Source: a virus (taxonomy: Duplodnaviria; Caudoviricetes). Taken from it: a stretch of 64,000 nucleotides of DNA. The stretch covers positions 32,001 to 96,000 of the IMG/VR virus record IMGVR_UViG_2974518066_000001; one strand, 5' to 3'. The notes beneath the pieces were generated by a model that was not told where the DNA came from, did not search any database, and saw nothing but the letters and a program-made list of their open reading frames with translations. The position numbers were made by a program, and so were the translations under genes. The stretch's first letter is position 1. The number at the start of each line of letters is the position of its first letter. Of this stretch, positions 32,630 to 46,500 are shown piece by piece.

Positions 32630-33554
32630 AACGACTCCTTGATGTCAGTTTGACTAACTATCAGTTCTTGCATTGTCAAGCGAAAATGGCTATAAGGGTT
32701 ATCGATGGTAACCCAAGAAGCTATGGACGATTTCGACGAGGCTGACTGCCTCTGTCAGGGCAAGGCGATCCCCAAGGAAAAGTGGATCGATTTCATGCAG
32801 CGCGTCTTCGACGAGAAGACCCAGCTCTGGAAGTGGAAGACCGTCCTCCGCTACCACAAGGACTGCCCGATCCATGGCATCCACATCAAGGATGATGAAT
32901 GCCCCGAGGCCTGAGCCCCCTGCAGTGCAATGATATTGAGCGTTCCGGCACCATCCCGCCGGAATGCTCCTTCATGAACCCCACGCTTCACTTTTGTGAC
33001 AAATGGCGTGGGGCTTTGATCGACGAGACGGACCCGGAGTTCGACCGGTGCCGTTGCAACGGAGTAAAGCGTGCCTCAACTGACCCGATCTGATATTGCT
33101 CACATGGTGGTGAGCGATGATACCCCGTTCGAGCGGGATGGTATCTCGAACCTCGACCGCACCGCTTTCGTCTGCGAGGCGTTCCAGCGTCCCTACCTCT
33201 CGATGCAGCAGGACCTTCCCTATGAGGAAGCGCTGCAGTGCCACGACGAGACCTTGGTGCAGGCGTCCATCTATATGGCACACCTCCAGCACCAATACAC
33301 CGCTATCGCGACGGCGGATGGCCACTATGAGGAGGATGTCGGGAATTTTCGGTGTGCTCGGCTCCAGCTCGCAGCGATGAAGCTCCAGTGGCATCTCGAT
33401 CATCTGCGGCGGAATGAGTTCACTCCTTCCTTTCCTTTCGTTCACTGACCCAAAAGCGCCCGGTTAACTACCGGGCGTTTCTTCTGGTTCGTGTTGACTC
33501 CACTTTCTGGTTTCCTTACAGTTCACTTACCGAATCACGAACTGGAGACGAACC

Positions 33555-34133
33555 ATGACCATCAAGCGCGCCAAGACGCTCGACACTGACCAGCTCAATG
33601 GCCTGTTGGCTTACGTAGAAGCGAACTCGCGTATGCCGGAACGCGACCGCCTGTTCGTCCTCCTTTCCTATAAGGCAGGGCTACGCGCCGCTGAGATCAC
33701 GAAGATCGACATCAACGCGATGACTGACGCCGAGGGCCGCATCGCCAAGGTCGTCAACATCTTCTCGAACGTTGGCAAGAAGGGGCGCGAGCGGCAGATT
33801 CCTATGCACCCCGAAATCCGTGACGCGCTCAAGGCTTTCCGGAAAAAATACCCGCACCTTAACTATATCGCGGTGTCGTCCGTGGATGGTCAGCGCATGA
33901 ACGTCAACGCGGTGACGGTCTATATCTGGCGCCTTTACAAGGCGGCAGGATATGAGGATTGCTCCAGTCACTCGGGGCGTCGCACCTTCATCACCAACCT
34001 TGCCCAGCGGGCTAACCAGTTCCACTCCTCGCTTCGTGACGTTCAGCTCCTAGCTGGGCACGCCCGGCTCGACACCACCGAACGCTACATCGCGCCTTCC
34101 TTCGATACTGCTTCGATGGTTGCTTCTTTGTAG
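33555..34133 (+). CDS. small tyrosine recombinase (catalytic domain only)
   Basis: GLRAAE, HSGRR, LAGH, TTERY; upstream TTGACT-17-TACAGT promoter. Confidence 0.9.
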   Translation: MTIKRAKTLDTDQLNGLLAYVEANSRMPERDRLFVLLSYKAGLRAAEITKIDINAMTDAEGRIAKVVNIFSNVGKKGRERQIPMHPEIRDALKAFRKKYPHLNYIAVSSVDGQRMNVNAVTVYIWRLYKAAGYEDCSSHSGRRTFITNLAQRANQFHSSLRDVQLLAGHARLDTTERYIAPSFDTASMVASL

Positions 34134-34209
34134 CCCCATTACGAACCCGTCTTGACCTCCTAAAGGGAACGGAATAGCTCTCCGTCATCACCGAAGAAGG
34201 AGACGAGAA

Positions 34210-34578
34210 GTGGCAAATGATTCTGCACCGAAGAGAGCTAAGCCGAGGGCGGGCGCCAAGACCGCCCCGGCTGCGCCCAGCTTCACCAAGGATCAGGTCG
34301 TGATCGAGGATATGGAAGCGCCCAACCGAGGTGCTGCGGTCCTTGCCGAAGAGATTTGGCCATTCGGTCTTCTCAAGCCCTCGGTCATTGGCGAAAACGG
34401 GAAGCTGACAGGGCCGTCTTTCTTCATTCCGGATGTGGACGTTGGTGAGAAGGCGCTGTCGTCGGCGCGGAAGCGCTACAAGGTCGATAAGATCAAGTTC
34501 ACCTCGCGCAAGATGGTGGGGAAGGGGCCTGACGGGGTTGAGTGCGAAGGCCTTCGCATCTGGCGGATGCCGGATTGA
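34210..34578 (+). CDS. hypothetical protein
   Basis: AAGGAG RBS with GTG start. Confidence 0.6.
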   Translation: MANDSAPKRAKPRAGAKTAPAAPSFTKDQVVIEDMEAPNRGAAVLAEEIWPFGLLKPSVIGENGKLTGPSFFIPDVDVGEKALSSARKRYKVDKIKFTSRKMVGKGPDGVECEGLRIWRMPD

Positions 34579-34609
34579 TAACTTTTTCATGAGCAATGTC
34601 GATTTTAAG

Positions 34610-34638
34610 TTGACATTCGTGAAAAACATCTCTATTAG
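34610..34638 (+). promoter_or_regulatory. sigma70-type promoter of tRNA cluster A
   Basis: TTGACA-17-TATTAG. Confidence 0.65.
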
Positions 34639-34917
34639 CACAAACACCGGCGAGGGGAACCTTGTCGGTGTTTCTGTCTCCACGGTTTTCCGAGGGGCAG
34701 GGAGGGCCGTTGAACGGGCCGAGGAGTAAGCGCCGAGCTTGGGCGCTGAAAGCCAGTCCCGGATACGGTTTCGCAGTTGTAGTCCGAGCATAGCTTCGAG
34801 CTGGTGACAGAAGGATGGGCGCTGGATTAAGCACCCAGCGTTTCCGGAATTACCACGAGAAGAACTAGCCCGCTGCGAAGGTAAGCTGACCTGTCACGCG
34901 GTAAGTCGTGGTTTCAT

Positions 34918-34995
34918 CTGGGTGTAGCGCAGTCCGGTTAGCGTGTGCGGTTCGGAGCCGTGAGGTCGTAGGTTCAAATCCTACCATCCAGACCA
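34918..34995 (+). tRNA. tRNA-Pro(CGG)
   Basis: cloverleaf; loop TTCGGAG; CCA. Confidence 0.9.
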
Positions 34996-35003
34996 TTTTC
35001 AGT

Positions 35004-35081
35004 GCCAGTGTAGCTCAGCCCGGTAGAGCAGGAGGCCCATACCCTCTTTGTCGGTGGTTCAAATCCACCCGTCTGGCACCA
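35004..35081 (+). tRNA. tRNA-Met/Ile2(CAT), atypical
   Basis: loop CCCATAC; bulged acceptor stem; CCA. Confidence 0.75.
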
Positions 35082-35088
35082 GTTCTTA

Positions 35089-35227
35089 GAGGTAACGCCG
35101 GTTCGAGCCCGGCTCGCCCGCCCAGCTGGTGATCGTCTAGTTTCGTAGGACGCCTCGCAAGGGAAACGTCGGTTCAAATCCGGCCCGCCCGTAGTTTAGG
35201 GTGGTCGTCTAGTGGTTAGGACGCCCT
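35089..35227 (+). ncRNA. two tandem circularly permuted tRNA-like modules (YrlA/Y-RNA-like)
   Basis: each unit: variable loop, T arm, loop-closed acceptor, D arm; closing stems GAGG/CCTC and AGGG/CCCT. Confidence 0.65.
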
Positions 35228-35269
35228 GTAATTCGGTCCAGGTATCCGTCAAATCGGATGGACCAGCGG

Positions 35270-35344
35270 TGGGGATTAGCTCAGCGGTAGAGCAGCCGTT
35301 TTACATGCGGCCGGTCGGCGGTTCGATCCCGTCATCCCTAACCA
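35270..35344 (+). tRNA. tRNA-Val(TAC)
   Basis: cloverleaf; CCA. Confidence 0.9.
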
Positions 35345-35346
35345 AC

Positions 35347-35421
35347 GCCTCGTTAGCTCAGCGGTAGAGCGCTGCTATGACATGGCAGATGACGGTGGTT
35401 CAAACCCATCACGAGGCACCA
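35347..35421 (+). tRNA. tRNA-Val(GAC)
   Basis: cloverleaf; CCA. Confidence 0.9.
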
Positions 35422-35693
35422 TTTTGAGACCCGAGGTAAAGGGATGTGAGGCGTGCAAGAGCCACGCGCTTTAGAAGCCCTGATCCTTGCGACGGTAGGC
35501 TCACGTCGCACCAGTTAGACCAAATCCGTGGCGGATGCTGCGGCCACCCGCGAGAGTGCGGTAACACCGGAAGGCCAGAGGGCGGTGGCGGTTAGTTATT
35601 CGAGGTTGGGCCTGTCGGACGCGGCAGGTAGGAGATCGCATAGCCCGGCTGTTAACCGGCGGTCCTATACGGACGTGTGAAGCTCCACCCAGC

Positions 35694-35768
35694 GGGGATG
35701 TAGCTCAGAGGTAGAGCACCCGTTTTGCAAGCGGAAGCGCGTCGGTTCGACTCCGACCATCTCCACCA
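35694..35768 (+). tRNA. tRNA-Ala(TGC)
   Basis: G3:U70 pair; cloverleaf; CCA. Confidence 0.92.
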
Positions 35769-35902
35769 GTTTAGGACGGCGAGTGGCCCGGTATTGGTCC
35801 GGGCATCAAATGGACTGCGGAGCGGGGAACTATCGCCTATCCCGCCCGGTCATGCGAGGACAAAATGGAGCGTGGCGCTCCTACTCGCAACGCCACACCT
35901 GT

Positions 35903-35984
35903 TTGGTAGTGACAGAGTGGTAATGTGCCCGGCTGTTAACCGGTGACCCGAAAGGCGGTGGTTCGATCCCACCCTACCGAACCA
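35903..35984 (+). tRNA. tRNA-Asn(GTT) with long variable arm
   Basis: loop CTGTTAA; extra arm; CCA. Confidence 0.8.
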
Positions 35985-35985
35985 T

Positions 35986-36062
35986 AGCGGTGTAGCTCAG
36001 CCCGGTAGAGCAACCGACCGATAATCGGTGTGTCGCAGGTTCAAATCCTGCCATCGCTACCA
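35986..36062 (+). tRNA. tRNA-Ile(GAT)
   Basis: loop CCGATAA; CCA. Confidence 0.9.
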
Positions 36063-36084
36063 GTTTCTCGAAAGGACCCGACCC

Positions 36085-36591
36085 TTGAAGAAGATGTTCG
36101 TGATGGCGGCTGCGGTAGCCTCAATGCTCGTTGCTGCCTGCGATCGACAGCCTTCTGCTGCCGAGCGCTGCATGGAGGCCAAGAACCCGCAGGAATGCTA
36201 TCAGGTGGCAAACGCTGGTGGCGACATCAACGATTACCTGATCGGTGGCCTCGGCGGTTACATGCTGGCGAAGGTCATGAGCGGCGGGCGGCAGCAGACC
36301 GTCATCGTGCAGAACCCGAATTATCATGGGCCGCGCCGATACGTCCCCAGCTACGCTTCCAGCCGTCAGCGCGTCCTCAACGGACAGGTCAAGACGGTCA
36401 GCACCACGACCACGAAGCGCGGCCTGTTCGGGTCGAAGACCACCACCACGACCAAGACTTTCGGCTCCAAGCCTGCCAGCTCGTGGGGCTCTTCCTACTC
36501 GAAGCCATCCAAGTCTTGGGGCTCGTCGTCCCGGTCCTTCTCTTCTTCGCGGTCGTCCTTCTCGTCGCGATCTTCGTTCCGGCGCCGCTGA
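36085..36591 (+). CDS. lipoprotein with Ser/Arg/Thr-rich tail, inside the tRNA array
   Basis: AAAGGA RBS; TTG start; lipobox LVAAC. Confidence 0.75.
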   Translation: MKKMFVMAAAVASMLVAACDRQPSAAERCMEAKNPQECYQVANAGGDINDYLIGGLGGYMLAKVMSGGRQQTVIVQNPNYHGPRRYVPSYASSRQRVLNGQVKTVSTTTTKRGLFGSKTTTTTKTFGSKPASSWGSSYSKPSKSWGSSSRSFSSSRSSFSSRSSFRRR

Positions 36592-36626
36592 CAATCTAGG
36601 GTTGGTGAATTATTTCACTAACCCTA

Positions 36627-36655
36627 TTGACAGTTAAAGTAACTTCCGTTACACT
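36627..36655 (+). promoter_or_regulatory. promoter of tRNA cluster B
   Basis: TTGACA-17-TACACT with GTTAAAGTAAC palindrome in the spacer. Confidence 0.8.
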
Positions 36656-36709
36656 CTCCGCATCATGAGCCAATCGGCTCTCATCAGTTTCAGAGAAAAG
36701 CTCACCACC

Positions 36710-36769
36710 ATGTTCACCCGGTTTGGAAAACGAGATCGCCGAGAAGGCGAACGAGGTTTTAGCCTCTAA
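36710..36769 (+). CDS. putative attenuator leader peptide of cluster B, MFTRFGKRDRREGERGFSL (in-frame upstream ATG at 36665)
   Basis: 15 of 18 non-Met codons are F/R/G/K/D/E, the cluster B amino acids. Confidence 0.75.
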   Translation: MFTRFGKRDRREGERGFSL

Positions 36770-36806
36770 CCGGTAGTGTGCCTTTTGCTGCCGGTGCTGT
36801 TTTAGC

Positions 36807-36882
36807 GGATCGGTAGCTCAGTAGGTAGAGCAGGGGATTCTTACTCCCAAGGTGGACGGTTCAAGCCCGTCTCGATCCTCCA
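36807..36882 (+). tRNA. tRNA-Lys(CTT)
   Basis: cloverleaf; CCA. Confidence 0.9.
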
Positions 36883-36902
36883 AGACAGCATCGGAAGTTT
36901 TA

Positions 36903-36939
36903 GACACCCTACCGGACACCCGGTGGGGTGTTTTCGTTT
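36903..36939 (+). terminator. intrinsic terminator (attenuator) after the first tRNA of cluster B
   Basis: GACACCCTACCGG/CCGGTGGGGTGTT stem plus TTTCGTTT. Confidence 0.8.
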
Positions 36940-36954
36940 GCGCTTCTCGGCTTC

Positions 36955-37030
36955 GGGCCGGTAGCTCAGTAGGCAGAGCAGGGGGCTTTTAACCTCAAGG
37001 TGGTCGGTTCAAGCCCGACCCGGCTCACCA
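36955..37030 (+). tRNA. tRNA-Lys(TTT)
   Basis: cloverleaf; CCA. Confidence 0.9.
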
Positions 37031-37038
37031 GTTTCAAT

Positions 37039-37113
37039 GCAGGCGTCGTTCAGACGGTAGGACACCTCCTTGCCATGGAGGAGACGCGGGTTCGAGACCC
37101 GCCGCCCGCTCCA
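37039..37113 (+). tRNA. tRNA-Gly(GCC)
   Basis: cloverleaf; U73; CCA. Confidence 0.9.
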
Positions 37114-37125
37114 TCATTCACCTTT

Positions 37126-37202
37126 GGTTCTGTAGCTTAGCTGGTGAAAGCGCCGGGTTGTCAACTCGGAGATCGCGGGTTCAAGTCCCGTCAGAACCGC
37201 CA
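37126..37202 (+). tRNA. tRNA-Asp(GTC)
   Basis: cloverleaf; G73; CCA. Confidence 0.92.
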
Positions 37203-37203
37203 T

Positions 37204-37278
37204 GGGGCGTTCGTCTAGCGGACAGGACGCTGGCTTCTCAAGCCGGAAGCAGGGGTTCGATTCCCCTACGCCTCACCA
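37204..37278 (+). tRNA. tRNA-Glu(CTC)
   Basis: cloverleaf; CCA. Confidence 0.92.
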
Positions 37279-37286
37279 GTTCACAT

Positions 37287-37362
37287 AGCGCCATCGTCTA
37301 GCGAGCAGGACACGTTGGCTTTCACCCTTCGGACGCGGGTTTGAATCCCGTTGGCGCTGCCA
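37287..37362 (+). tRNA. tRNA-Glu(TTC), atypical anticodon stem
   Basis: loop CTTTCAC; stem CGTTGG/CCTTCG with two U.U mismatches; CCA. Confidence 0.7.
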
Positions 37363-37388
37363 GTGAACAGTTATGAAGAGAGTTTCGA

Positions 37389-37463
37389 GCGACATTAGCT
37401 CAGCGGTAGAGCGGCGGTTTTCCAGTCCGCGCGTCAGGAGTTCGATCCTCCTATGTCGCTCCA
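37389..37463 (+). tRNA. tRNA-Gly(TCC)
   Basis: cloverleaf; CCA. Confidence 0.88.
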
Positions 37464-37472
37464 AATTCTCTT

Positions 37473-37548
37473 GGCCCGGAAGCACAACTGGACGTGCGCT
37501 CCGCTACGAACGGAAAGGTTGTGGGTTCGAGTCCCACGCGGGCCTCCA
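37473..37548 (+). tRNA. tRNA-Arg(ACG)
   Basis: loop CTACGAA; CCA. Confidence 0.88.
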
Positions 37549-37553
37549 TTTTC

Positions 37554-37628
37554 GGTGAGGTAGCTCAGAGGTAGAGCGCCGGTTTGAAAAGCCGGGCGTC
37601 GGTGGTTCGATCCCGCCTCTCACCACCA
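37554..37628 (+). tRNA. tRNA-Phe(GAA)
   Basis: cloverleaf; CCA. Confidence 0.9.
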
Positions 37629-37635
37629 GAGGTTT

Positions 37636-37992
37636 ATGCAAGACGAAATCGAACGAAAGCGACGAAACAGCGCGGCCCACTATGCGAGAAATCGGGAGGC
37701 CGTAAAGGCTAAGTCGAGGGCAGCAAAGCCTCTACGCCGAGCTGCCTGTCACCAGTTCGTCCTAGAGTATTTGCTTAATCACCCTTGTGTCGATTGCGGC
37801 GAGGACGATCCGATCGTTTTGGAGTTCGACCATCAACGAGACAAGAGCTTCGCGATTTCTGATGGAGCCCGAGCCGGGTATAGCCTCAAAAAGCTAGAGG
37901 CAGAGATCGCAAAGTGTGAGGTTCGCTGTGCCAACTGCCACAGACGGAAAACCTACCGGGAGCGCGGATTGGAAAATCGCACCATCCATTAA
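37636..37992 (+). CDS. HNH endonuclease in the tRNA array
   Basis: CVDCGEDDPIVLEFDH...KCEVRCANCHRRKT. Confidence 0.88.
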   Translation: MQDEIERKRRNSAAHYARNREAVKAKSRAAKPLRRAACHQFVLEYLLNHPCVDCGEDDPIVLEFDHQRDKSFAISDGARAGYSLKKLEAEIAKCEVRCANCHRRKTYRERGLENRTIH

Positions 37993-38000
37993 AATAGTTA

Positions 38001-38029
38001 TTGACACTAACCTATAGTTCGGTTATCAT
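38001..38029 (+). promoter_or_regulatory. promoter of tRNA cluster C; predicted start site at or next to the leader ATG (leaderless)
   Basis: TTGACA-17-TATCAT; ATG 8 nt after the -10 box. Confidence 0.8.
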
Positions 38030-38036
38030 TCGCACC

Positions 38037-38105
38037 ATGTTCACACAGACCACCTTGCTTACGCAGTGCCATTATTGGCAACTGCTATCGAGTTCATCCC
38101 TCTAA
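38037..38105 (+). CDS. putative attenuator leader peptide of cluster C, MFTQTTLLTQCHYWQLLSSSSL
   Basis: 20 of 21 non-Met codons are T/Q/L/C/H/Y/W/S, the cluster C amino acids. Confidence 0.8.
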   Translation: MFTQTTLLTQCHYWQLLSSSSL

Positions 38106-38139
38106 GGGAGTGGTTCTGACGCGCCACTCCCCGACCTAC

Positions 38140-38228
38140 GGAGGGTGGCTGCAAGAGGTGCGTAACCGGTCTCGAAAACCGGGCTGGGGTTAGGAGCCCT
38201 ACGGGTTCGATCCCTGCACCCTCCGCCA
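38140..38228 (+). tRNA. tRNA-Ser(CGA)
   Basis: long variable arm; G73; CCA. Confidence 0.85.
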
Positions 38229-38235
38229 AGTTTTT

Positions 38236-38276
38236 AAGCGTCTGCGACCACTCGGTCTCAGGCGCTTTTTCGTTTT
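38236..38276 (+). terminator. intrinsic terminator (attenuator) after the first tRNA of cluster C
   Basis: AAGCGTCTG-C-GACC/GGTC-T-CAGGCGCTT stem plus TTTCGTTTT. Confidence 0.8.
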
Positions 38277-38292
38277 GGAGATTTTGATTTTC

Positions 38293-38376
38293 GGGAGGGC
38301 TGGGCACGAGTGAGCCCACACGCCTGTAAAGCGGACGCGAAAGCTGTGAGGGTGCAAATTCCCTCACCTCCCACCA
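38293..38376 (+). tRNA. tRNA-Tyr(GTA)
   Basis: loop CTGTAAA; variable arm; atypical T loop; CCA. Confidence 0.8.
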
Positions 38377-38381
38377 TTATT

Positions 38382-38466
38382 GGCCCGCTGGTGAAATGTA
38401 GACGCACTCGCCTCAGAAGCGAGCGACCGAGAGGTCATCCCGGTTCAAATCCGGGGCGGGCCACCA
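38382..38466 (+). tRNA. tRNA-Leu(CAG)
   Basis: class II cloverleaf; CCA. Confidence 0.9.
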
Positions 38467-38471
38467 TGATC

Positions 38472-38556
38472 GGGGATGTGGTGAAATAGGTAAACGCAGC
38501 GGGTCGAGAGCCCGCCGCCTGATGGCTTGAGGGTTCAAGTCCCTCCATCCCCACCA
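38472..38556 (+). tRNA. tRNA-Leu(GAG)
   Basis: class II cloverleaf; loop TCGAGAG; CCA. Confidence 0.88.
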
Positions 38557-38587
38557 TGATTATCACGCATCTCAGATGCGCCAGAAT

Positions 38588-38661
38588 GCCCGGTTAGCTC
38601 AATGGTAGAGCTACGCCGTCGTAACGCGAGGACGAGGGTTCGATTCCCTCACCGGGCTCCA
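38588..38661 (+). tRNA. tRNA-Thr(CGT)
   Basis: loop GTCGTAA; weak anticodon stem; CCA. Confidence 0.8.
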
Positions 38662-38675
38662 TGCAGGTCTCAGGT

Positions 38676-38751
38676 GTGACCGAGGCAGAGTTGGATCATG
38701 TGCCGGGTCGTGATCCCGGATACGGCGGGTTCGAGCCCCGCCGGTCACCCC
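38676..38751 (+). tRNA. tRNA-His(GTG)
   Basis: loop TCGTGAT; C73; ends CCT rather than CCA. Confidence 0.8.
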
Positions 38752-38769
38752 TAAGCCCTGCAAGGCTAT

Positions 38770-38843
38770 TTCCCGTTCGTTCAATGGTAGGACGCCCGGC
38801 TCTGAACCGGGAGATCGAGGTTCGAGTCCTTGACGGGGAACCA
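38770..38843 (+). tRNA. tRNA-Gln(CTG)
   Basis: cloverleaf; CCA. Confidence 0.9.
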
Positions 38844-38858
38844 GATTTATCCGCACAC

Positions 38859-38945
38859 GGAGAGTTGCCAGAGCGGTAATGGGCTGGCTTGCTAAGCCAA
38901 GACAACCTCACGGTTGCGAGGGTTCGATCCCCTCACTCTCCTCCA
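38859..38945 (+). tRNA. tRNA-Ser(GCT)
   Basis: class II cloverleaf; CCA. Confidence 0.88.
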
Positions 38946-38953
38946 TCATCACT

Positions 38954-39027
38954 GCCGCCTTGGCCGAGTGGCAAGGCTCCGGATTGCAACCCCGGCATCT
39001 CCCGTTCGATCCGGGAAGGCGGCTCCA
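38954..39027 (+). tRNA. tRNA-Cys(GCA)
   Basis: U73; CCA. Confidence 0.9.
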
Positions 39028-39031
39028 TCAT

Positions 39032-39107
39032 ATCTCCAAAGCATTAAGGGGCGATGCACCGGTCTCCAAAACCGGCAAGCTGGGTTCGAGTCCTAGTGGA
39101 GGTGCCA
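39032..39107 (+). tRNA. tRNA-Trp(CCA)
   Basis: loop CTCCAAA; G73; CCA. Confidence 0.88.
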
Positions 39108-39272
39108 TATTGCAAAGTCGGGCGTGATGCCCTACATCCACTCCCGGCTCTCGTCCCTCTTCTCGTGGAGGTTCCGAAAGCCGGTCATGTTAGAAGCGGA
39201 ACTCGATCTCGATCGTGAGCCACTTCGTGATGAACCGGAGGATGAGACGGCACATCTCACTTCCTCCAATTC

Positions 39273-39302
39273 GCCGCCGGGTTAATTCCCGGCGGCTTTT
39301 TT
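39273..39302 (+). terminator. intrinsic terminator ending the tRNA array
   Basis: GCCGCCGGG/CCCGGCGGC plus T6. Confidence 0.85.
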
Positions 39303-39447
39303 GTGCTAATTCGCCTAGAATGATTCGGCAAGGGCGTATCTTCTGGTCATTGACTTTTTCGGCATTTTGCTCTATGATCCGGCGTTCTGCATCCGTCTTC
39401 GAGGGTGCGTCTCCTCCACATCGTTATCACCCTCACGAGGACCCATC

Positions 39448-39876
39448 ATGTCCAAGAGCAATTTCCTTGAGAACGCGATTCTGGCCCTGCTGTTCAACGG
39501 CACCGGCATCGCCAACCTCGCCGACAACTCGGGCGTCGCCCCGCTGACCACCCTCTATGTCTCGCTGCACACCAGCGATCCGGGCGAAGCAGGCACGCAG
39601 GCCACCAACGAGATCGCCTACACCAACTATGCCCGCGTCGCCGTCGCCCGCACTGCGGCAGGCTGGCAGGTGACCGGTAATGCCGTGTCCCCGGCGCAGA
39701 ACATCGACTTCCCGACCGGCACCGGCGGCACCGGCACTGCCACCCACTTCGGCATCGGCGTGGCGCAGAACGGCGCTGGCACGCTCCTCTACTCGGGCAC
39801 CATCACTCCGAACATCGTTTGCGGCAACGGCATCACGCCGCGCCTGAGCACCACGGGCACCATCACCGAGGACTGA
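39448..39876 (+). CDS. virion structural / fibre-associated protein
   Basis: MSKSNFLENAILALLFNG...YVSLHTSDPGE...YARVAV, a common phage family. Confidence 0.75.
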   Translation: MSKSNFLENAILALLFNGTGIANLADNSGVAPLTTLYVSLHTSDPGEAGTQATNEIAYTNYARVAVARTAAGWQVTGNAVSPAQNIDFPTGTGGTGTATHFGIGVAQNGAGTLLYSGTITPNIVCGNGITPRLSTTGTITED

Positions 39877-39902
39877 TGTGCCTCTCTAACGGGAGGTAAT
39901 CC

Positions 39903-41534
39903 GTGGCAACAATCTTTGCCAAAGACGATCTGATTGTCGATGCCACCGCCAGCCTGAATGGGCGGGTGGCGGAGATCGGCGGATCATGGGTCTCTGTTTC
40001 TGGCACCAGCTCGGGGCTTGGCGGCACGAGCGGGACCATGGGCGTGTATCTGAATCAGGGCGCTCGCTCGACCTCTACCACTTCGCCCGGTGTAATCGCT
40101 TACTTGTCGGACCCGGCGCCTGCAGATGACATTGTTCTGTCTTGGAAGTCCGGCTACTTCGGCACTTCCGGCGCTCCGGGTGTGGCCTTCCGTGTCAATG
40201 GCACGTCAGGCTACCTACTGCAGCTCGCGCAGACTTTCATCGTCCTCTACAAGACTGTTGCCGGTTCGCGGAAGACGGTCATCCAGCAGACGGGATTGTC
40301 GCCTCTCAGTCCCACCAACGCTTTTCACGACTACGAATTGCATGTGAAGGGTGGCCGTCTCAGCCTTTATAAAGACGGCGCCCTTTTCTGGGAATATGAG
40401 GACGCAGACGCGCCACTTCTGACGGCGGGTAACGTCGGCCTCTTCATTCGCGGCGATGGTCGCACAACAAATTTCCTAGCCTACGTCCCGGACGGCGAAA
40501 TTGTCGTCGGCTCCCCTGAATCGGCGGGCTCCTCGGAGGCCGCTTTCGCCGGTGAGAAGTTCGTAGCGGGGTCGATCAGCTCAGCAGGCACGACGCCGAC
40601 CGCCTACATGCAGTCGGCGACCTACCGCGTCGGCGAGATGCGAAACGCTAACGGCGAGTCAAACGCTCGCTTCGACGCTATCGCTCTCATCACTGCCCAG
40701 ATGTATGCGCTGGCGCAGGCTCCTGAGCCAGACTTCCATAGCGTCGGCTTCTCCGCCACGACCGGTGCCATGGATGGCGCAGGGACCACGGTAGCTGCGT
40801 TCGTTGGTCGGGCTACCATGTCGGGCGATATGGCTGGTGCTGGCGTTACCAGTGATGCTATGGTCTCTCGCGCTTTCGGACAGGGCGAGGGCGAGTTCTC
40901 GATCGGCAGCGGCGGCACCTCGGCGGCTGCGTTCACCGCTCAGCGGATCGTCAGCGCTCGGATGCAGTCGGAGCCAAAATACGACGGCGACTCCTTCAAG
41001 TTTGTCGGCGGGCGCACGATCGAGGCTTCGTTCCTTTCGGAAGGCTCCAGCACCGCAGGCTTCACCGGTTACGTCGCAGTGCGGATCGAGGCCGCTGGCT
41101 CCTCGACTGCCTCGTTCGCTCCCACTGATGTCACGATCCCGGCGACCTTCTCGGCTGTCGGTTCGTCAGTCGGCGCTCTCAAGGAGCTGGAGTTCGCGGT
41201 AACGCGCTTCGGGCAGGTAGGCGCCCTCGGCTTCGGTCGCATGGTGGGCGTATCTGTCACCGGCGGCGCCATGAAGTCGCAGGGTGCTTCGATCATGTCG
41301 GGCTGGGCAGGGGCGACGATCTTCTCTAGCGAGATGGGGGCGGAAGGCTCCATGCGTGGTCGCATGGTCTCGCTCTCGTTCAGCAGCAACATCCCCACAC
41401 CGGACGATCGCGTCTCCTTCCTCCCGGCCGAGGATCGAACCGCTGTCCTTGAGGTCGAAGATCGGGAAGTGCTTCTCCCGGTTGAAGACCGCGAAATCCT
41501 CCTCCCGGCCGAAGATCGGATTGCATACCTATGA
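39903..41534 (+). CDS. putative virion fibre/adhesin (lectin-like N-terminus, G/S/A-rich repeats)
   Basis: beta-sandwich-like N-terminus; repeated GxSxAxF; C-terminal EDR repeats. Confidence 0.6.
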   Translation: MATIFAKDDLIVDATASLNGRVAEIGGSWVSVSGTSSGLGGTSGTMGVYLNQGARSTSTTSPGVIAYLSDPAPADDIVLSWKSGYFGTSGAPGVAFRVNGTSGYLLQLAQTFIVLYKTVAGSRKTVIQQTGLSPLSPTNAFHDYELHVKGGRLSLYKDGALFWEYEDADAPLLTAGNVGLFIRGDGRTTNFLAYVPDGEIVVGSPESAGSSEAAFAGEKFVAGSISSAGTTPTAYMQSATYRVGEMRNANGESNARFDAIALITAQMYALAQAPEPDFHSVGFSATTGAMDGAGTTVAAFVGRATMSGDMAGAGVTSDAMVSRAFGQGEGEFSIGSGGTSAAAFTAQRIVSARMQSEPKYDGDSFKFVGGRTIEASFLSEGSSTAGFTGYVAVRIEAAGSSTASFAPTDVTIPATFSAVGSSVGALKELEFAVTRFGQVGALGFGRMVGVSVTGGAMKSQGASIMSGWAGATIFSSEMGAEGSMRGRMVSLSFSSNIPTPDDRVSFLPAEDRTAVLEVEDREVLLPVEDREILLPAEDRIAYL

Positions 41535-41815
41535 GCATGAAATGGAAGACCCCGAAGGACCCGGATGAAATCCTCGACTATGTGGTCGATTATTCCAGTC
41601 GCATGGTTCCCGGCGACCGCATCGCCTCGATCATGGAGGTGTCTGTCGTCGATGGCTCCGTCCATATCGACAGCTATTCCTTCACCGACAATCGCCTGAC
41701 GGTCTGGCTGTCTGGCGGCACGGAAGGGGAGGCATGTCCGATCCTGTTTCGTGTCACCACGGAAGGCGGGCGCTTGCTCGACCAGACTGTCACCGTGAAG
41801 ATCAAAACGAAATAA
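41531..41815 (+). CDS. phage fibre-tail adaptor-like protein
   Basis: KDPDEILDYVVDY...VWLSGG...TTEGGR. Confidence 0.7.
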   Translation: MSMKWKTPKDPDEILDYVVDYSSRMVPGDRIASIMEVSVVDGSVHIDSYSFTDNRLTVWLSGGTEGEACPILFRVTTEGGRLLDQTVTVKIKTK

Positions 41816-42174
41816 TTTTGGCTGCGATGACAGAATCAGTTGACATATGAATCATTCGGGTCTAGTGATCCTGTCATCGAGACGGCGATGCGGAGGGGCC
41901 TCCTCCACGGAGACGCTGAGGCACTGGACTACAAAGCCGGTGGCGTTTCTACCGTTCGAGACTGAGCCCGCGCTTACAGCGATGGGTCTATCGAGGCTTC
42001 GGCCGCTGAGCCAGCGTAGCAGATCAGCGGTCACCAACACTCGCAATGCGAGACCTCTTGCATAAGCGCCCGGCCTGAATCGTCGGTAGCGGGATGTGGC
42101 TCAACACTAGGGCGGCGAAGCTGGGAGTAGTGCCCCGGCGAGCTTCGAGGTTTCACATTGCCAGTGATGGCTAA

Positions 42175-42303
42175 GATCAGGTCGGTTGCCCGAGTGGTTT
42201 AAGGGTGATCGATGCAAGACTGGATGGGATCGGAGGCAACGGCTCCGCACCACATGACGGTAAACCGTCCAGCCGAGGGTTCGACTCCCTCACCGGTCTG
42301 ATC
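42175..42303 (+). ncRNA. tRNA-like RNA with an insertion in place of a normal anticodon arm
   Basis: 12-bp closing stem; D loop GAGTGGTTTAA; T arm GAGGG-TTCGACT-CCCTC; no CCA. Confidence 0.6.
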
Positions 42304-42386
42304 GATTACGAGGTTGGCCCGCCGTGCCGTTATCGTCCGCGCTTCTTAGCGCGGGGCGCCGGGCCACATTTTTAGAAAGGAAGTTG

Positions 42387-42869
42387 TTGGATACGGAACT
42401 TGCCTACCTTGCTGGGTTTCTTGACGGAGAAGGCACGATAGGTTTGTTCAAGACTTCTGGTGCCAATGCGTTCAAGGTGCCGTGTATTTCGGTGTCCAGC
42501 ACGGATAGGTATCTTCTGGATGCTTACGTCCATCGTTTCGGTGGACACATCCAGACCAAGGCGAGCAAACGGCCTGAAAATCATCGGCAAGCCTATGAAT
42601 ATCGCTTGCGTGGTCCTAAGGCTATTTGCGCGATTTCGGAGTTGTTTCCGTATTTACGCCACCACGTCAAGCGCGCCAGAGCGACGATGATCTTGGAGCA
42701 CTTCACCAAGATCACTAAGCGCAACGGGAAATACACCGAAGCTGAGCGCGCTATAAAGATAAGGTGGGAAGAGTTATTTCTCAGCTTGTCATCGCGAGGT
42801 GGCGATGCTTGGACAAGGGATTACCAGCAGTTCGCTGTTGGTGATGATGATCGTAATTCGGACGATTGA
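42387..42869 (+). mobile_element. LAGLIDADG homing endonuclease running into the tmRNA gene
   Basis: LAYLAGFLDGEG; AAGGAAG RBS with TTG start; lower GC. Confidence 0.85.
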
Positions 42870-43194
42870 GGACGCGCACGGACCGGGGAGCGTTACCCCG
42901 CACCTCCACCATTGCTGCTGAGCGCGAGGCTCAGAACTTCGGAGACACGGCGGTATCCAACCCGCAGGGCCTCAGTAGCATTGATGGGGGTGAAGTAGGA
43001 TCGACGTGCAAGGCTGAGAGAAGGACGCGATCGGTTTGGGTGCTGCCCCTTATGCGGTGCCAAGGCTTTAACTGCCAACGACAATGATGTTGTCACTGCG
43101 GAAGTGCGCCTCGCGGCGTAACCCGAGAAATTCCTGAGCCTTCAACAAGCTCAGGTGCGGACTGGCCCACCGAGCAACAGGACGGGCCACATTT
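42830..43194 (+). ncRNA. ssrA: circularly permuted two-piece tmRNA; tag ANDNDVVTAEVRLAA (43074-43121); outer ends approximate
   Basis: acceptor 3' end CACCTCCACCA (ends 42911) precedes 5' end GGGGGTGAAGTAGGATCGAC (42986); G3:U70; hairpin intervening segment. Confidence 0.92.
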
Positions 43195-43424
43195 GAGGCA
43201 GGGGCCGATCACAACCTCCCCTGACCGCTCGCTGTGTCCCCGCGCAGCCGTGATCGGTCTCTTCCTCAACTGTGACAAATTTAGGTGAGGAGCCGTGGCT
43301 GCAATCGCGGTGTTTTGCAGGACCGACCGACACAACTGGACAGTCCTCACCTGATCATCTCTGCAGGGTTTCCCGTTCCCTGCATGACAGCCGGGCGACC
43401 CATGTCTCCCCCGAAAGCCCGGCG

Positions 43425-43466
43425 AGGCCCGCGACCAAAATCATCGGTCGCGGGCCTTTCTGTTTG
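43425..43466 (+). terminator. intrinsic terminator
   Basis: AGGCCCGCGACC/GGTCGCGGGCCT plus TTCTGTTT. Confidence 0.7.
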
Positions 43467-43571
43467 TCGGATGGTTATTAAAACTTGACTTTCAACGGTT
43501 CGAGAGTTAGTCAGGCGGACCAAATCTGAATCGGCGACCCAAGCCGAAATCCCTCATTCTCTAAGGTATCC

Positions 43572-46500
43572 ATGGCAACATACACGAAAGCCCTCGCCGA
43601 GCTGTTCGACGGGGTAGGGGGCACGGTCGTCCTCCACGACGCCGATGGCGCGACTTACGCCGAGACCGATCTGGCGGAGCTGGCGAGCATCGCCGACGAG
43701 CTGATTGCCGGTGACCTCGACCCGTGGGTTGATCTGGTGACCGCCGAAGGCACTGCTATCGGCTTGTTCGTTCCCGGCGACGCCACCGCCGTGAGCCCGC
43801 CGCCCAGCGCGATCGTGGATGGTGGCATGGTCTACCTGTTCAATGAACCGGTCGAAGGTCAGAAGCCGGGCGTGAACCTTTGCCCGCTCGACCTCATCGA
43901 AGGCGCCGTGACATATGATCCGACCCGCTTGGAGCTGTCCACCGACGCCTCCAAGCGTTCGATCACTCTGGGGCAGGGCCGCCGAAGTGATGAAAAGCAG
44001 GGCAAGTGGAAGGAGATCACTTCCACCTTCGGCGCGTTCACCGATTTCCTGCGCCAGCACAATGAAGGCCAGAAGGATGGTCCATGCTTCCTGCAAGGCG
44101 CCACGGCTGGTGGCACCCGTAAGGCGGCGGCGATTATCGGCAACGATGTGCTCGGCGTCGATCTCGATTCCGGTGCGCCCCTGAGTGACGTGATCGACAC
44201 AATCGTCCGCCATCGGCTGGAGGCTGTGATCTACACGACCCACAGCCATCTCAAGGACACCAGCGTCATCAAGCGCGACCATTATTTCAAGTGGTCTGGC
44301 GAGCTTGTCGCAACGACCGAAGGCGTCGCGGATTACCTGCAGCAGGTGAAGGGCGTCCTCCCCCACATCGTCGAGGACGTGGAAATCGTCAACGAGAGCC
44401 ACCATACCGAAGATGGTATCGTGATCCTCGTGAAGCACCGGCCGATGCCAAAATTCCGCGCCGTGTTTCCGCTCAAGGAGACTTTCGTGTTCTCCAAGCG
44501 CGGCGGCACCCAGCAGGACGCCATCGCGGAGTGGAAGGAACGATACGCTGGCTTCTGCACCGAGCTGGGTCTGTTCTTCGACGAGAAGTGCGTCGATCCG
44601 GCGCGCCTGTTCTATTTCCCTCGGCACGCCAAGGGCGACACCAGCTTTGGCTCGTGGCACGTCGTGGGCGGCGCTCTGGACCTCGACGACTACGACCGTG
44701 TGAAGATGAAGCGCGGCCGGGATGGTAAGCGCCGGGCCGTGTCGAGCAATGCCTTCACGGCGGCTGGCGGCGGCGAGGAAGAGGACGATCGGGAGCGCTA
44801 CGTCACCGACGATGGCTTCCACCTGCGTCCGTGGGCGGCGAAGTTCGCCAACCGCTTCGAGGTCGAGATGATGCTGGAGACGGTGGTCGGCGACGACTTC
44901 ATGCGAGACCCGCGCACCGGCGGTAAGCCCGGCACGCACGTCGAGTGCCCCTTCGAGGCGGAGCACACCAGCTTCGGCGGCGGCGGCACCTATGTCGTCA
45001 ACGCCTCCGACAATATGGATGACGGCTTCGACGGCGGCTTCACCTTCCACTGTGTTCACAACGCCTGTTCAGGTCGTGACCGGCTCGACTACCTGTGCGA
45101 GTTGATCAATCAGGGTGTGATCTCGTCGAAGGACCTGCAGAACAAGGAGTTCATGGTCGCGCTGGAAGGCGACGACGATGATGAAGATGAAGTCGAGGCG
45201 GAAGCCGACGATCGCCGGGTGAATGCCGCAGCGGCCAAGGCCGGGCTGTCCGGGACGTTCGCAGGTGTTCGTGGCCAGTCCAAGAAGCCTTCGATGGAGG
45301 GCATGACCGAGGACGAAATTCTCCTCTGGGAGATGAACGATCGCTATGCGGTGATCCGCACCAGCGGCGGCGTCAAGATTCTTGTCGAGCCCCGCACCGC
45401 TGATGGCGATGTCTCATTCGAGAGCCAGAACGACGTTGCCCTGTTCGAGAAGAACAACGTGCTGTGGATGGGCGACGGCAAGAAGGGCAAGCAGAAGATC
45501 GAGGTCTTCAAGCTGTGGCTCGAATGGGAGCACCGCCGCACCTACGTCGATGTCGTCTTCGAGCCGGGCCGGGAGACTGAGGAGCATACCTACAATCTCT
45601 TCCGTGGCTGGCCCTACAGCCCGAAGGAGACGTTCTGGGAGCAGGTCACCGATAACAAGGACAAGCCCGTGCCCGGCGACTGGTCCATGCTTCGTGGTCA
45701 CATCTACGAGAACATCTGCGAGTCCAACGACGAAATGTTCGGGTGGTTGATGACGTGGCTGGCCCACCTGTTCCAGCACCCCGACCAAAAGCCGGGCTCC
45801 ACCGTCGTCGTCACCGGCAAGAAGGGCACCGGCAAGTCCACGCTCTTCGACTATGTGAACAAGGCTCTGGGGCGCTGCGGGATCACTGTGTCGCAGCGTA
45901 AGCAGATCGTCGGCCAGTTCAATGGTCACCTTGCTACGACGCTCCTGATGGTCTGCGAAGAAGCCTTCTGGGCAGCGGACCCGCAGGCGGAAGGCGTGCT
46001 CAAGGACATGATCACCAACAAGTCGATGTTGATCGAAAAGAAGGGCTACGACCCGATCCAGTCGAACAACTACACCCGGCTTGCCCTGATCTCGAACAAC
46101 GAGTGGGTCGTTCCCGCCTCCCTCAAAGACGAGCGTCGCTTCTTTGTTCTGCGATGCTCCGATGCACGTCAGGGTGACCTTGCTTTCTTCGGCGCCCTCC
46201 GTGAACAGATGGAGAAGCTGGGAGGTATCGAGGCCATGATGTATGACCTCATGACTTGGGAGCCGACGAACGGTCACTTCTCCTCGCTCTACACGCCGCC
46301 GGTGACGCAGTATCTGCAGCAGCAGCAGGTCGAATCTCTTTCGGGTGTCCAGAAGTTCATGCTTGAACTGGTCAAATCGGGTATCTACGAGACCCATGAC
46401 GACAAGGTAGAGGCGATCGAACTCAACACCGACAAGGAGACCATGGTCACGGCGGTGGATATGCGAGCGGCGATCGAAGATTACACCCGCTTCCGGTTTG

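Follow-up and report, generated by a model that had tools for sequence, protein, structure and literature searches.

Do phages regulate the production of the tRNAs that they encode? Phage tRNA genes are usually seen as constitutive codon supplements or as decoys against tRNA-cleaving defenses (PMC10264068, PMC11464382). The question was raised here by a short open reading frame (ORF) that stands between a promoter and an intrinsic terminator within the tRNA array of Sphingobium phage Lacusarx (KY629563). The window analyzed in this study, a stretch of 64,000 nt, corresponds to bases 32001–96000 of this phage in a 130,138-bp virus record, and the tRNA genes are located at window positions 34918–39107 (66918–71107 of the record). 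According to ARAGORN calls and a scan for promoters and terminators, the array is divided by promoters and terminators into operons, and the region from 38001 to 38276 is probably the control region of the third of these (cluster C). The ORF in this region is written in the amino acids that the operon serves and is placed ahead of a terminator, which points to control of tRNA production by ribosome speed: in Lacusarx and at least 11 relatives, the pace of ribosomes on a small test gene probably decides whether tRNAs are produced.

Related control regions and their common layout

The cluster C module was found by BLAST in the Erythrobacter phages XM05 and vB_EliS-L02 (hereafter L02), the records of which carry no annotation at the position of the module. 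Nine more lineages were obtained from pattern scans of viral (IMG/VR) and metagenome contigs, with L051, L052 and L064 recovered by scans that ignored the 5' end of the ORF, and the resulting set comprised 12 lineages including Lacusarx. All 12 share a common layout in which a promoter is followed by the ORF, a hairpin (P2), tRNA-Ser, a terminator and then the remaining tRNAs. The order past the terminator in the relatives is tRNA-Tyr and then Leu, Thr, His, Gln, Ser, Cys and Trp.

In Lacusarx, every element named in the original prediction (promoter, ORF, pairing, P2 and terminator) was located where it had been placed, and the elements of operon C described below all lie on the plus strand. 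The sole tRNA upstream of the terminator is tRNA-Ser(CGA) (38140–38228), which was called by ARAGORN and has the same position in all of the relatives. The first gene past the terminator is a non-canonical tRNA-Tyr(GTA)-like gene (38293–38376), identified from its cloverleaf fold and from a position homologous to that of the L02 tRNA-Tyr. It is followed by nine further tRNAs called by ARAGORN (38382–39107; Leu, Leu, Thr, His, Gln, Ser, Cys and Trp) and by a strong terminator found in the terminator scan (39273–39296), which closes the operon. No promoter was found between the cluster C terminator and the ten tRNAs that come after it.

In searches against Rfam, only tRNAs were matched in the region 38000–38400 (E ≤ 10), and tRNAs were also the only matches besides a tmRNA in the region 33500–44000 (E ≤ 1). 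A T-box or another curated RNA family was rejected as a candidate, as Rfam returned only tRNAs and the tmRNA.

Promoter geometry and a predicted leaderless start

A sigma-70-type promoter that agrees with the consensus at 11 of 12 positions was found at 38001–38029. It has a −35 box of TTGACA (38001–38006), a 17-nt spacer and a −10 box of TATCAT (38024–38029), and it was the top promoter-like site within 10.5 kb. Seven pyrimidine-rich bases (38030–38036) separate the −10 box from the ATG at 38037, the A of which is the eighth base past the box as had been described in the original prediction, and no purine-rich Shine-Dalgarno stretch precedes this ATG in the Lacusarx leader.

The same geometry is common to all of the 11 relatives, 11 of 11 having a −35 box of TTGAC(A/T), a spacer of exactly 17 nt with variable sequence, a near-consensus −10 box and exactly seven variable, purine-poor bases from the −10 box to the ATG; one twelfth lineage has nine bases between the −10 box and the ATG and has lost one codon. 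A fixed spacing with a variable sequence is expected if transcription starts at or beside the AUG, and leaderless mRNAs are common in alphaproteobacteria, for example in Caulobacter. A leaderless start had been predicted from Lacusarx, and it is now backed by the spacing kept in the relatives; the promoter–ATG geometry fits, and supports, a cluster C leader mRNA that would be leaderless.

A conserved ORF spelled in the amino acids of the downstream tRNAs

The putative leaderless sensor ORF (leader peptide C, 38037–38105) consists of 22 codons and a TAA stop codon (38103–38105). After the initial Met, 20 of the 21 residues in Lacusarx belong to S, Y, L, T, H, Q, C and W, the eight amino acids that the downstream tRNAs serve, and no peptide of the 12 lineages lacks any of them. 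The proportion of residues in this set is 81–95% among the lineages (21/26 to 20/21) against a six-frame background of 35%, an enrichment with binomial p values of 3e-6 to 5e-9 per lineage, and frames +1 and +2 are at the background level. The six frames of the 64-kb window contain 78,131 windows of 21 residues free of stops, and among these a score of 20 out of 21 was reached by the leader alone.

Frame 0 is open in 12 of 12 lineages, and frames +1 and +2 each contain stops in several of them. The ORF is 22–27 codons long (69, 72, 78, 81 or 84 nt), the indels between lineages are multiples of three and two lineages retain the ORF despite different N-terminal codons. The order of C, H, Y and W varies between lineages with the composition kept, which indicates selection on which codons occur and not on the peptide sequence. 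The Ser codons are clustered in the last four to six codons in every lineage, and in Lacusarx four different Ser codons form a ladder at 38088–38099.

At the codon level, the match to the tRNAs is partial, with 12 of 20 Lacusarx ORF codons cognate to the tRNAs of the operon itself. The Lacusarx ORF contains at least one cognate codon for each of the ten tRNAs, although the probability of such full coverage given the amino acid composition was estimated at ∼0.1, which is not significant alone.

A frame-specific match to the tRNA set combined with a shuffled residue order argues for a translated codon sensor. That the ORF would be a translated sensor, as originally proposed, is supported across the lineages by the reading frame kept open in all of them, the triplet indels and the agreement between its amino acids and the downstream tRNAs.

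Leader hairpins and their predicted pairing with the terminator

The leader hairpins P0 (a remnant in Lacusarx), P1 and P2 have lineage-specific sequences in which the pairing is kept. P1 lies within the ORF (38063–38085) and is predicted to fold into 9 bp with one bulge and a 4-nt loop; a hairpin is found at this site in every relative, each time with a different sequence. P2 (38106–38131) is located directly 3' of the stop codon and consists of a 5' arm (38106–38113), a loop (38114–38123) and a 3' arm (38124–38131). With a predicted stability of −16.8 kcal/mol, it corresponds to the local competing hairpin that had been proposed. Its stem shows compensatory changes, and its loop contains a 7-mer (38116–38122) that is invariant across the lineages and starts 11 nt past the stop codon, just beyond the ribosome footprint. 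In all lineages, the stop codon either adjoins the first base of P2 or overlaps it. As a genome-wide motif, the loop 7-mer is unremarkable (24 copies versus 15 expected).

The P2 5' arm (38106–38113) is similar to the 5' acceptor strand of tRNA-Ser (38140–38149), which would allow the 5' end of the tRNA to pair with the P2 3' arm. This pairing was borderline, with −14.5 kcal/mol and 3.6% of shuffles at least as stable, and the resemblance between P2 and the acceptor strand shifts jointly in the L025 clade.

The intrinsic terminator (38238–38276) has a stem of −20.8 kcal/mol and is conserved in the relatives. Its 5' arm and loop (38238–38253) are followed by the 3' arm (38254–38265) and a T-run (38266–38276); covariation is seen in the upper stem, whereas the lowest 7 bp hardly vary. 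The candidate antiterminator strand, formed by the P2 5' arm and loop (38108–38122), was predicted to pair with the terminator at 38238–38253 through one helix of 7 bp (38108–38114/38247–38253) and another of 5 bp (38118–38122/38238–38242) with a 3 × 4 internal loop between them. This duplex exists as drawn in the original prediction for Lacusarx, with −19.2 kcal/mol (z = −3.2) compared with −10.7 ± 2.6 kcal/mol for shuffled sequences, 0.6% of which were at least as stable, and the 7-bp half alone yielded −11.3 kcal/mol (0.8% of shuffles at least as stable). The 7-bp helix that joins the P2 5' arm to the terminator loop is, however, specific to Lacusarx and absent from all of the relatives, even from L064, the P2 of which is identical to that of Lacusarx, and the relatives instead carry the loop 7-mer complementary to the base of the terminator.

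The first seven bases of the terminator are perfectly complementary to the loop 7-mer in 10 of the 12 lineages. The match is 6 bp in L051 and 5 bp in Lacusarx, where the terminator base changed and the change was compensated in the terminator 3' arm, not in the loop. Eight of the nine scan lineages retain the terminator 7-mer, and L051 has a one-base difference. The P2 strand paired with the terminator 5' arm at −15 to −24 kcal/mol in 11 of 11 lineages (z of −1.6 to −4.2). Complementarity above chance in all of the lineages, in forms that differ among them, marks the match between the leader and the terminator arm as a family trait at the sequence level, with its form differing by lineage.

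Covariation was found across the cluster C lineages for neither form of the long-range pairing, the 7-mer and the terminator base being nearly invariant. In a duplex co-evolution test, the P2 strand of each lineage did not favor its own terminator over those of other lineages, because the loop 7-mer is invariant. The pairing in the relatives uses the P2 loop and does not require the exclusion of P2; the 7-mer could form an H-type pseudoknot with P2 intact, with linkers of 1–2 nt and 0–1 nt. The stability of P2 itself (−17 kcal/mol) is close to that of the long-range duplex. Another pairing that had been suggested, in which the 5' leader would sequester the P2 strand, did not hold up. The leader segment 38046–38053 paired with 38111–38118 no better than shuffles, and the candidate was rejected, its apparent covariation being found in three sequences with an energy at chance level and the pairing missing in one clade.

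Cluster B had been described as sharing its architecture with cluster C, and a comparison of the layouts confirmed this; the leader of cluster B follows the composition rule with K, G, D, E, R and F. The segment from its stop codon to tRNA-Lys(CTT) pairs with the trailer along nearly its whole length and reaches the terminator 5' arm, at −32 to −41 kcal/mol in five of five lineages (p ≤ 0.003). Clear compensatory changes were found in the inner helix, and one position in the outer helix covaries in three ways. Unlike in cluster B, pairing of the whole stop-to-tRNA segment with the whole trailer was not above shuffles in cluster C.

In the cluster B leader region (36627–36950 in Lacusarx), the leader ORF of the relatives (L055–L058) is 18–20 codons long, with a conserved core, and follows a 5' untranslated region of ∼50 nt that bears a hairpin, so that the cluster B leader of these relatives is not leaderless. 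An in-frame ATG at 36666 lengthens the ORF to 34 codons in Lacusarx. A short T-run lies behind the hairpin that follows the cluster B stop codon, and this hairpin may be a weak stop itself.

Proposed attenuation switch and its direction

It is reasonably likely that operon C is controlled by leader-peptide attenuation acting in the trp-like direction. In this mechanism, a host-type promoter would start the transcript at or beside the AUG, and ribosomes would read the 22-codon leaderless ORF spelled in the eight amino acids of the downstream tRNAs. Translation would terminate at the foot of P2, the 5' arm and loop of which could pair with the terminator placed after tRNA-Ser(CGA), and the position of ribosomes on the ORF would select either this long-range pairing or the terminator, thereby turning the ten downstream tRNAs on or off. 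Slow decoding of any sensed codon would keep ribosomes far from the end of the ORF and leave P2 and the antiterminator free, resulting in read-through, and a fast flow of ribosomes to the stop codon would unwind or occupy the P2 region, resulting in termination after tRNA-Ser. The 89-nt tRNA between the sensor and the terminator strains the timing of such a switch and counts against it, but a steady stream of terminating ribosomes, as opposed to one synchronized ribosome, would bypass this delay.

The direction was modeled from the nested fold of a transcript ending immediately ahead of the terminator 3' arm, in which a closed stem stood in for the tRNA, using a folding program that leaves the pseudoknot unscored and ignores both steric hindrance at the ribosome entrance and kinetics. 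For cluster B, pairing with the terminator arm gained 10–18 kcal/mol when a ribosome was stalled in mid-ORF but only 1–9 kcal/mol when it stood on the stop codon, and the model favors the trp-like direction. The tendency for cluster C was the reverse of that for cluster B, with a gain of 7–12 kcal/mol for a ribosome on the stop codon versus 2.5–7 kcal/mol for a mid-ORF stall, since the ribosome in this position opens P2 and frees the loop 7-mer. Caution over the polarity of the switch, which the original prediction had voiced, is justified by these opposite results. Among the regulated models, we lean towards the trp-like direction for cluster C, because all eight sensed amino acids then act in the same way, because it agrees with cluster B and because in Lacusarx the 7-bp half of the pairing would lie beneath a ribosome at the stop codon.

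The reverse switch is unlikely both in its inducing half, where a ribosome on the last codons (the Ser ladder) or the stop codon would open P2 and let the 7-mer pair with the terminator base for read-through, and equally in its repressing half, where upstream stalls or a lack of translation would leave P2 closed and cause termination. It would agree with the nested folds of cluster C, in which nearly all lineages have their top gain with the ribosome on the stop codon, with a conserved 7-mer that begins 11 nt after the stop, just outside the footprint, and with the packing of Ser codons into the final four to six codons of every lineage. In such a switch, however, the mid-ORF codons for C, H, Y, W, T and Q would oppose induction and yet are the conserved feature, and the model for cluster B points the other way. 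The 7-mer also lies in a loop of 8–10 nt and could pair as an H-type pseudoknot with P2 unopened, an arrangement that the program cannot score.

The long-range pairing might instead serve the folding, processing or stability of the pre-tRNA through the access of RNase P or RNase E, with the ORF translated and codon-matched and the terminator a fixed partial stop. The long and strongly covarying helix of cluster B encloses the first tRNA in the manner of processing stems, the cluster C pairing brackets tRNA-Ser and the match between the P2 3' arm and the tRNA 5' acceptor strand reaches borderline significance. We nevertheless regard this explanation as rather improbable, as it accounts neither for the overlap of the complementary segment with the terminator 5' arm, seen in both clusters, nor for the constant contact between the stop codon and the hairpin.

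Codon matching in other leaders

The same codon-matching rule was found with another amino acid set, and without an embedded tRNA, in Caulobacter phage CcrColossus. An unannotated 31-codon ORF (L063:1273–1368), in which 13 of the 15 residues from 3 to 17 are drawn from Y, V, I, Q, N and R, precedes an annotated terminator, a Tyr-like gene and the tRNAs Val, Ile, Ile, Gln, Gln, Asn and Arg. We give an even chance to the general proposition that phages of this group sort their tRNAs into operons by amino acid and that a translated test gene gates each operon by sampling exactly those amino acids.

If the cluster C leader were untranslated, it would be a structured RNA of P0, P1 and P2, for example an antitermination element like HK022 put or a stability element, and the ORF would be a by-product. 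Three hairpins with compensatory changes do occupy most of the leader, and its first 15 nt are nearly invariant in XM05 and L02, which were found without that motif. This reading is nonetheless very improbable, because the enrichment is confined to one frame (p of 1e-6 to 1e-8 per lineage) and covers all eight amino acids in 12 of 12 lineages, the indels come in threes, the spacing of the ATG from the −10 box is constant, the ORF persists in two lineages despite altered N-terminal codons and no Rfam family was matched. A small peptide with a function of its own and no part in tRNA control would account for an ORF conserved in 12 lineages, but is scarcely credible when the composition and not the residue order is conserved, when that composition equals the tRNA set of the operon and when cluster B and CcrColossus obey the same rule with other amino acid sets.

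Comparison with known regulatory systems

The closest parallel to the attenuation proposed for operon C is provided by amino acid attenuators (trpL, hisL, thrL and the ilvGMEDA leader of enterobacteria, and trpL of Sinorhizobium), which likewise combine a short ORF rich in pathway codons with an intrinsic terminator and a stop-adjacent segment able to pair with the terminator 5' arm. The thr and ilv leaders also sense several amino acids each, as the cluster C leader would, and the logic is that of these multivalent leader-peptide attenuators. Amino acid attenuators, however, regulate biosynthetic enzymes and use codon runs, whereas cluster C would regulate tRNAs and samples eight amino acids, mostly once or a few times. 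Cluster C further differs from them in its predicted leaderless start, its location in a phage and the presence of a whole tRNA gene between the antiterminator strand and the terminator. The tRNA-operon target, the breadth of eight amino acids, the predicted leaderless start, the embedded tRNA and the phage setting would set cluster C apart from the multivalent attenuators.

Leader-peptide attenuation of a gene of the translation apparatus, with feedback on aminoacyl-tRNA supply, would be shared with Escherichia coli pheM-pheST, which unlike cluster C controls a synthetase through Phe alone and has no embedded tRNA. T-box riboswitches, as cluster C would, couple tRNA status to the choice between terminator and antiterminator, but they bind uncharged tRNA directly and without a ribosome, and cluster C has no T-box match and a leader of ∼100 nt. 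The put RNA of HK022 resembles cluster C in having stem-loops right after a phage promoter and ahead of terminators, although it is untranslated and the cluster C hairpins are spanned by a codon-matched ORF. No published case of leader-peptide control of tRNA operons was found in the literature searched. The Lacusarx paper makes no mention of leaders (PMC5648845), and leader-peptide control is not mentioned in the L02 paper.

If the proposed attenuation is correct, the phage would gauge shortage of charged tRNAs group by group and switch on the matching replacement tRNAs, the shortage being caused, for example, by a host tRNA-cleaving defense or by phage-induced decay of host tRNAs. tRNA supply would then be regulated by phages on demand, a whole tRNA would be looped within an attenuator and leader-peptide attenuation would extend beyond enzyme genes to tRNA genes.

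The tRNA-Tyr-like gene and neighboring elements of the array

The sensor leader predicts that the Tyr-like gene of operon C is functional, although Lacusarx has been listed without tRNA-Tyr, its 24 reported tRNAs "lacking only Met and Tyr" (PMC5648845). The gene has an acceptor stem, a D arm, an anticodon loop of CTGTAAA, a long variable arm and an encoded CCA end, together with a 7-bp T stem closed by an 8-nt loop. It was missed by both ARAGORN and Rfam in Lacusarx, and the homologous L02 tRNA-Tyr is called by ARAGORN. The same variant was found in L052, and the gene is 77–87% identical to unannotated DNA in CcrColossus, CcrSC, CcrPW, CcrBL9 and Brevundimonas phages. In the literature, phiCbK-like phages are described as being without tRNA-Tyr. 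Another tRNA, with a CAT anticodon (Met-like), was detected in the window at 35005–35077 with 41 bits by the Rfam tRNA model; it was not called by ARAGORN and lies outside the published count of 24 tRNAs.

An ORF of 118 aa resembling an HNH endonuclease was found at 37636–37992, inserted between tRNA-Phe, the last gene of cluster B, and the promoter of cluster C; its DNA matches an HNH endonuclease gene annotated in a mycobacteriophage. The corresponding gap was checked in L02, L026, L051 and L057, where it is ∼190 nt and thus too short for this ORF. The independent contigs L019, L025/L037, L028 and L031 and the XM05 record begin or end 70–150 nt upstream of the cluster C promoter, and a single contig has the start of the module at both of its ends. 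These recurrent ends may reflect a physical genome end, a terminal repeat or a repeated assembly break.

Downstream of the tRNA array by 3.7 kb, a phage permuted tmRNA of the alphaproteobacterial type was found at 42805–43212, and a tmRNA homologue is also located after the tRNA array of L02.
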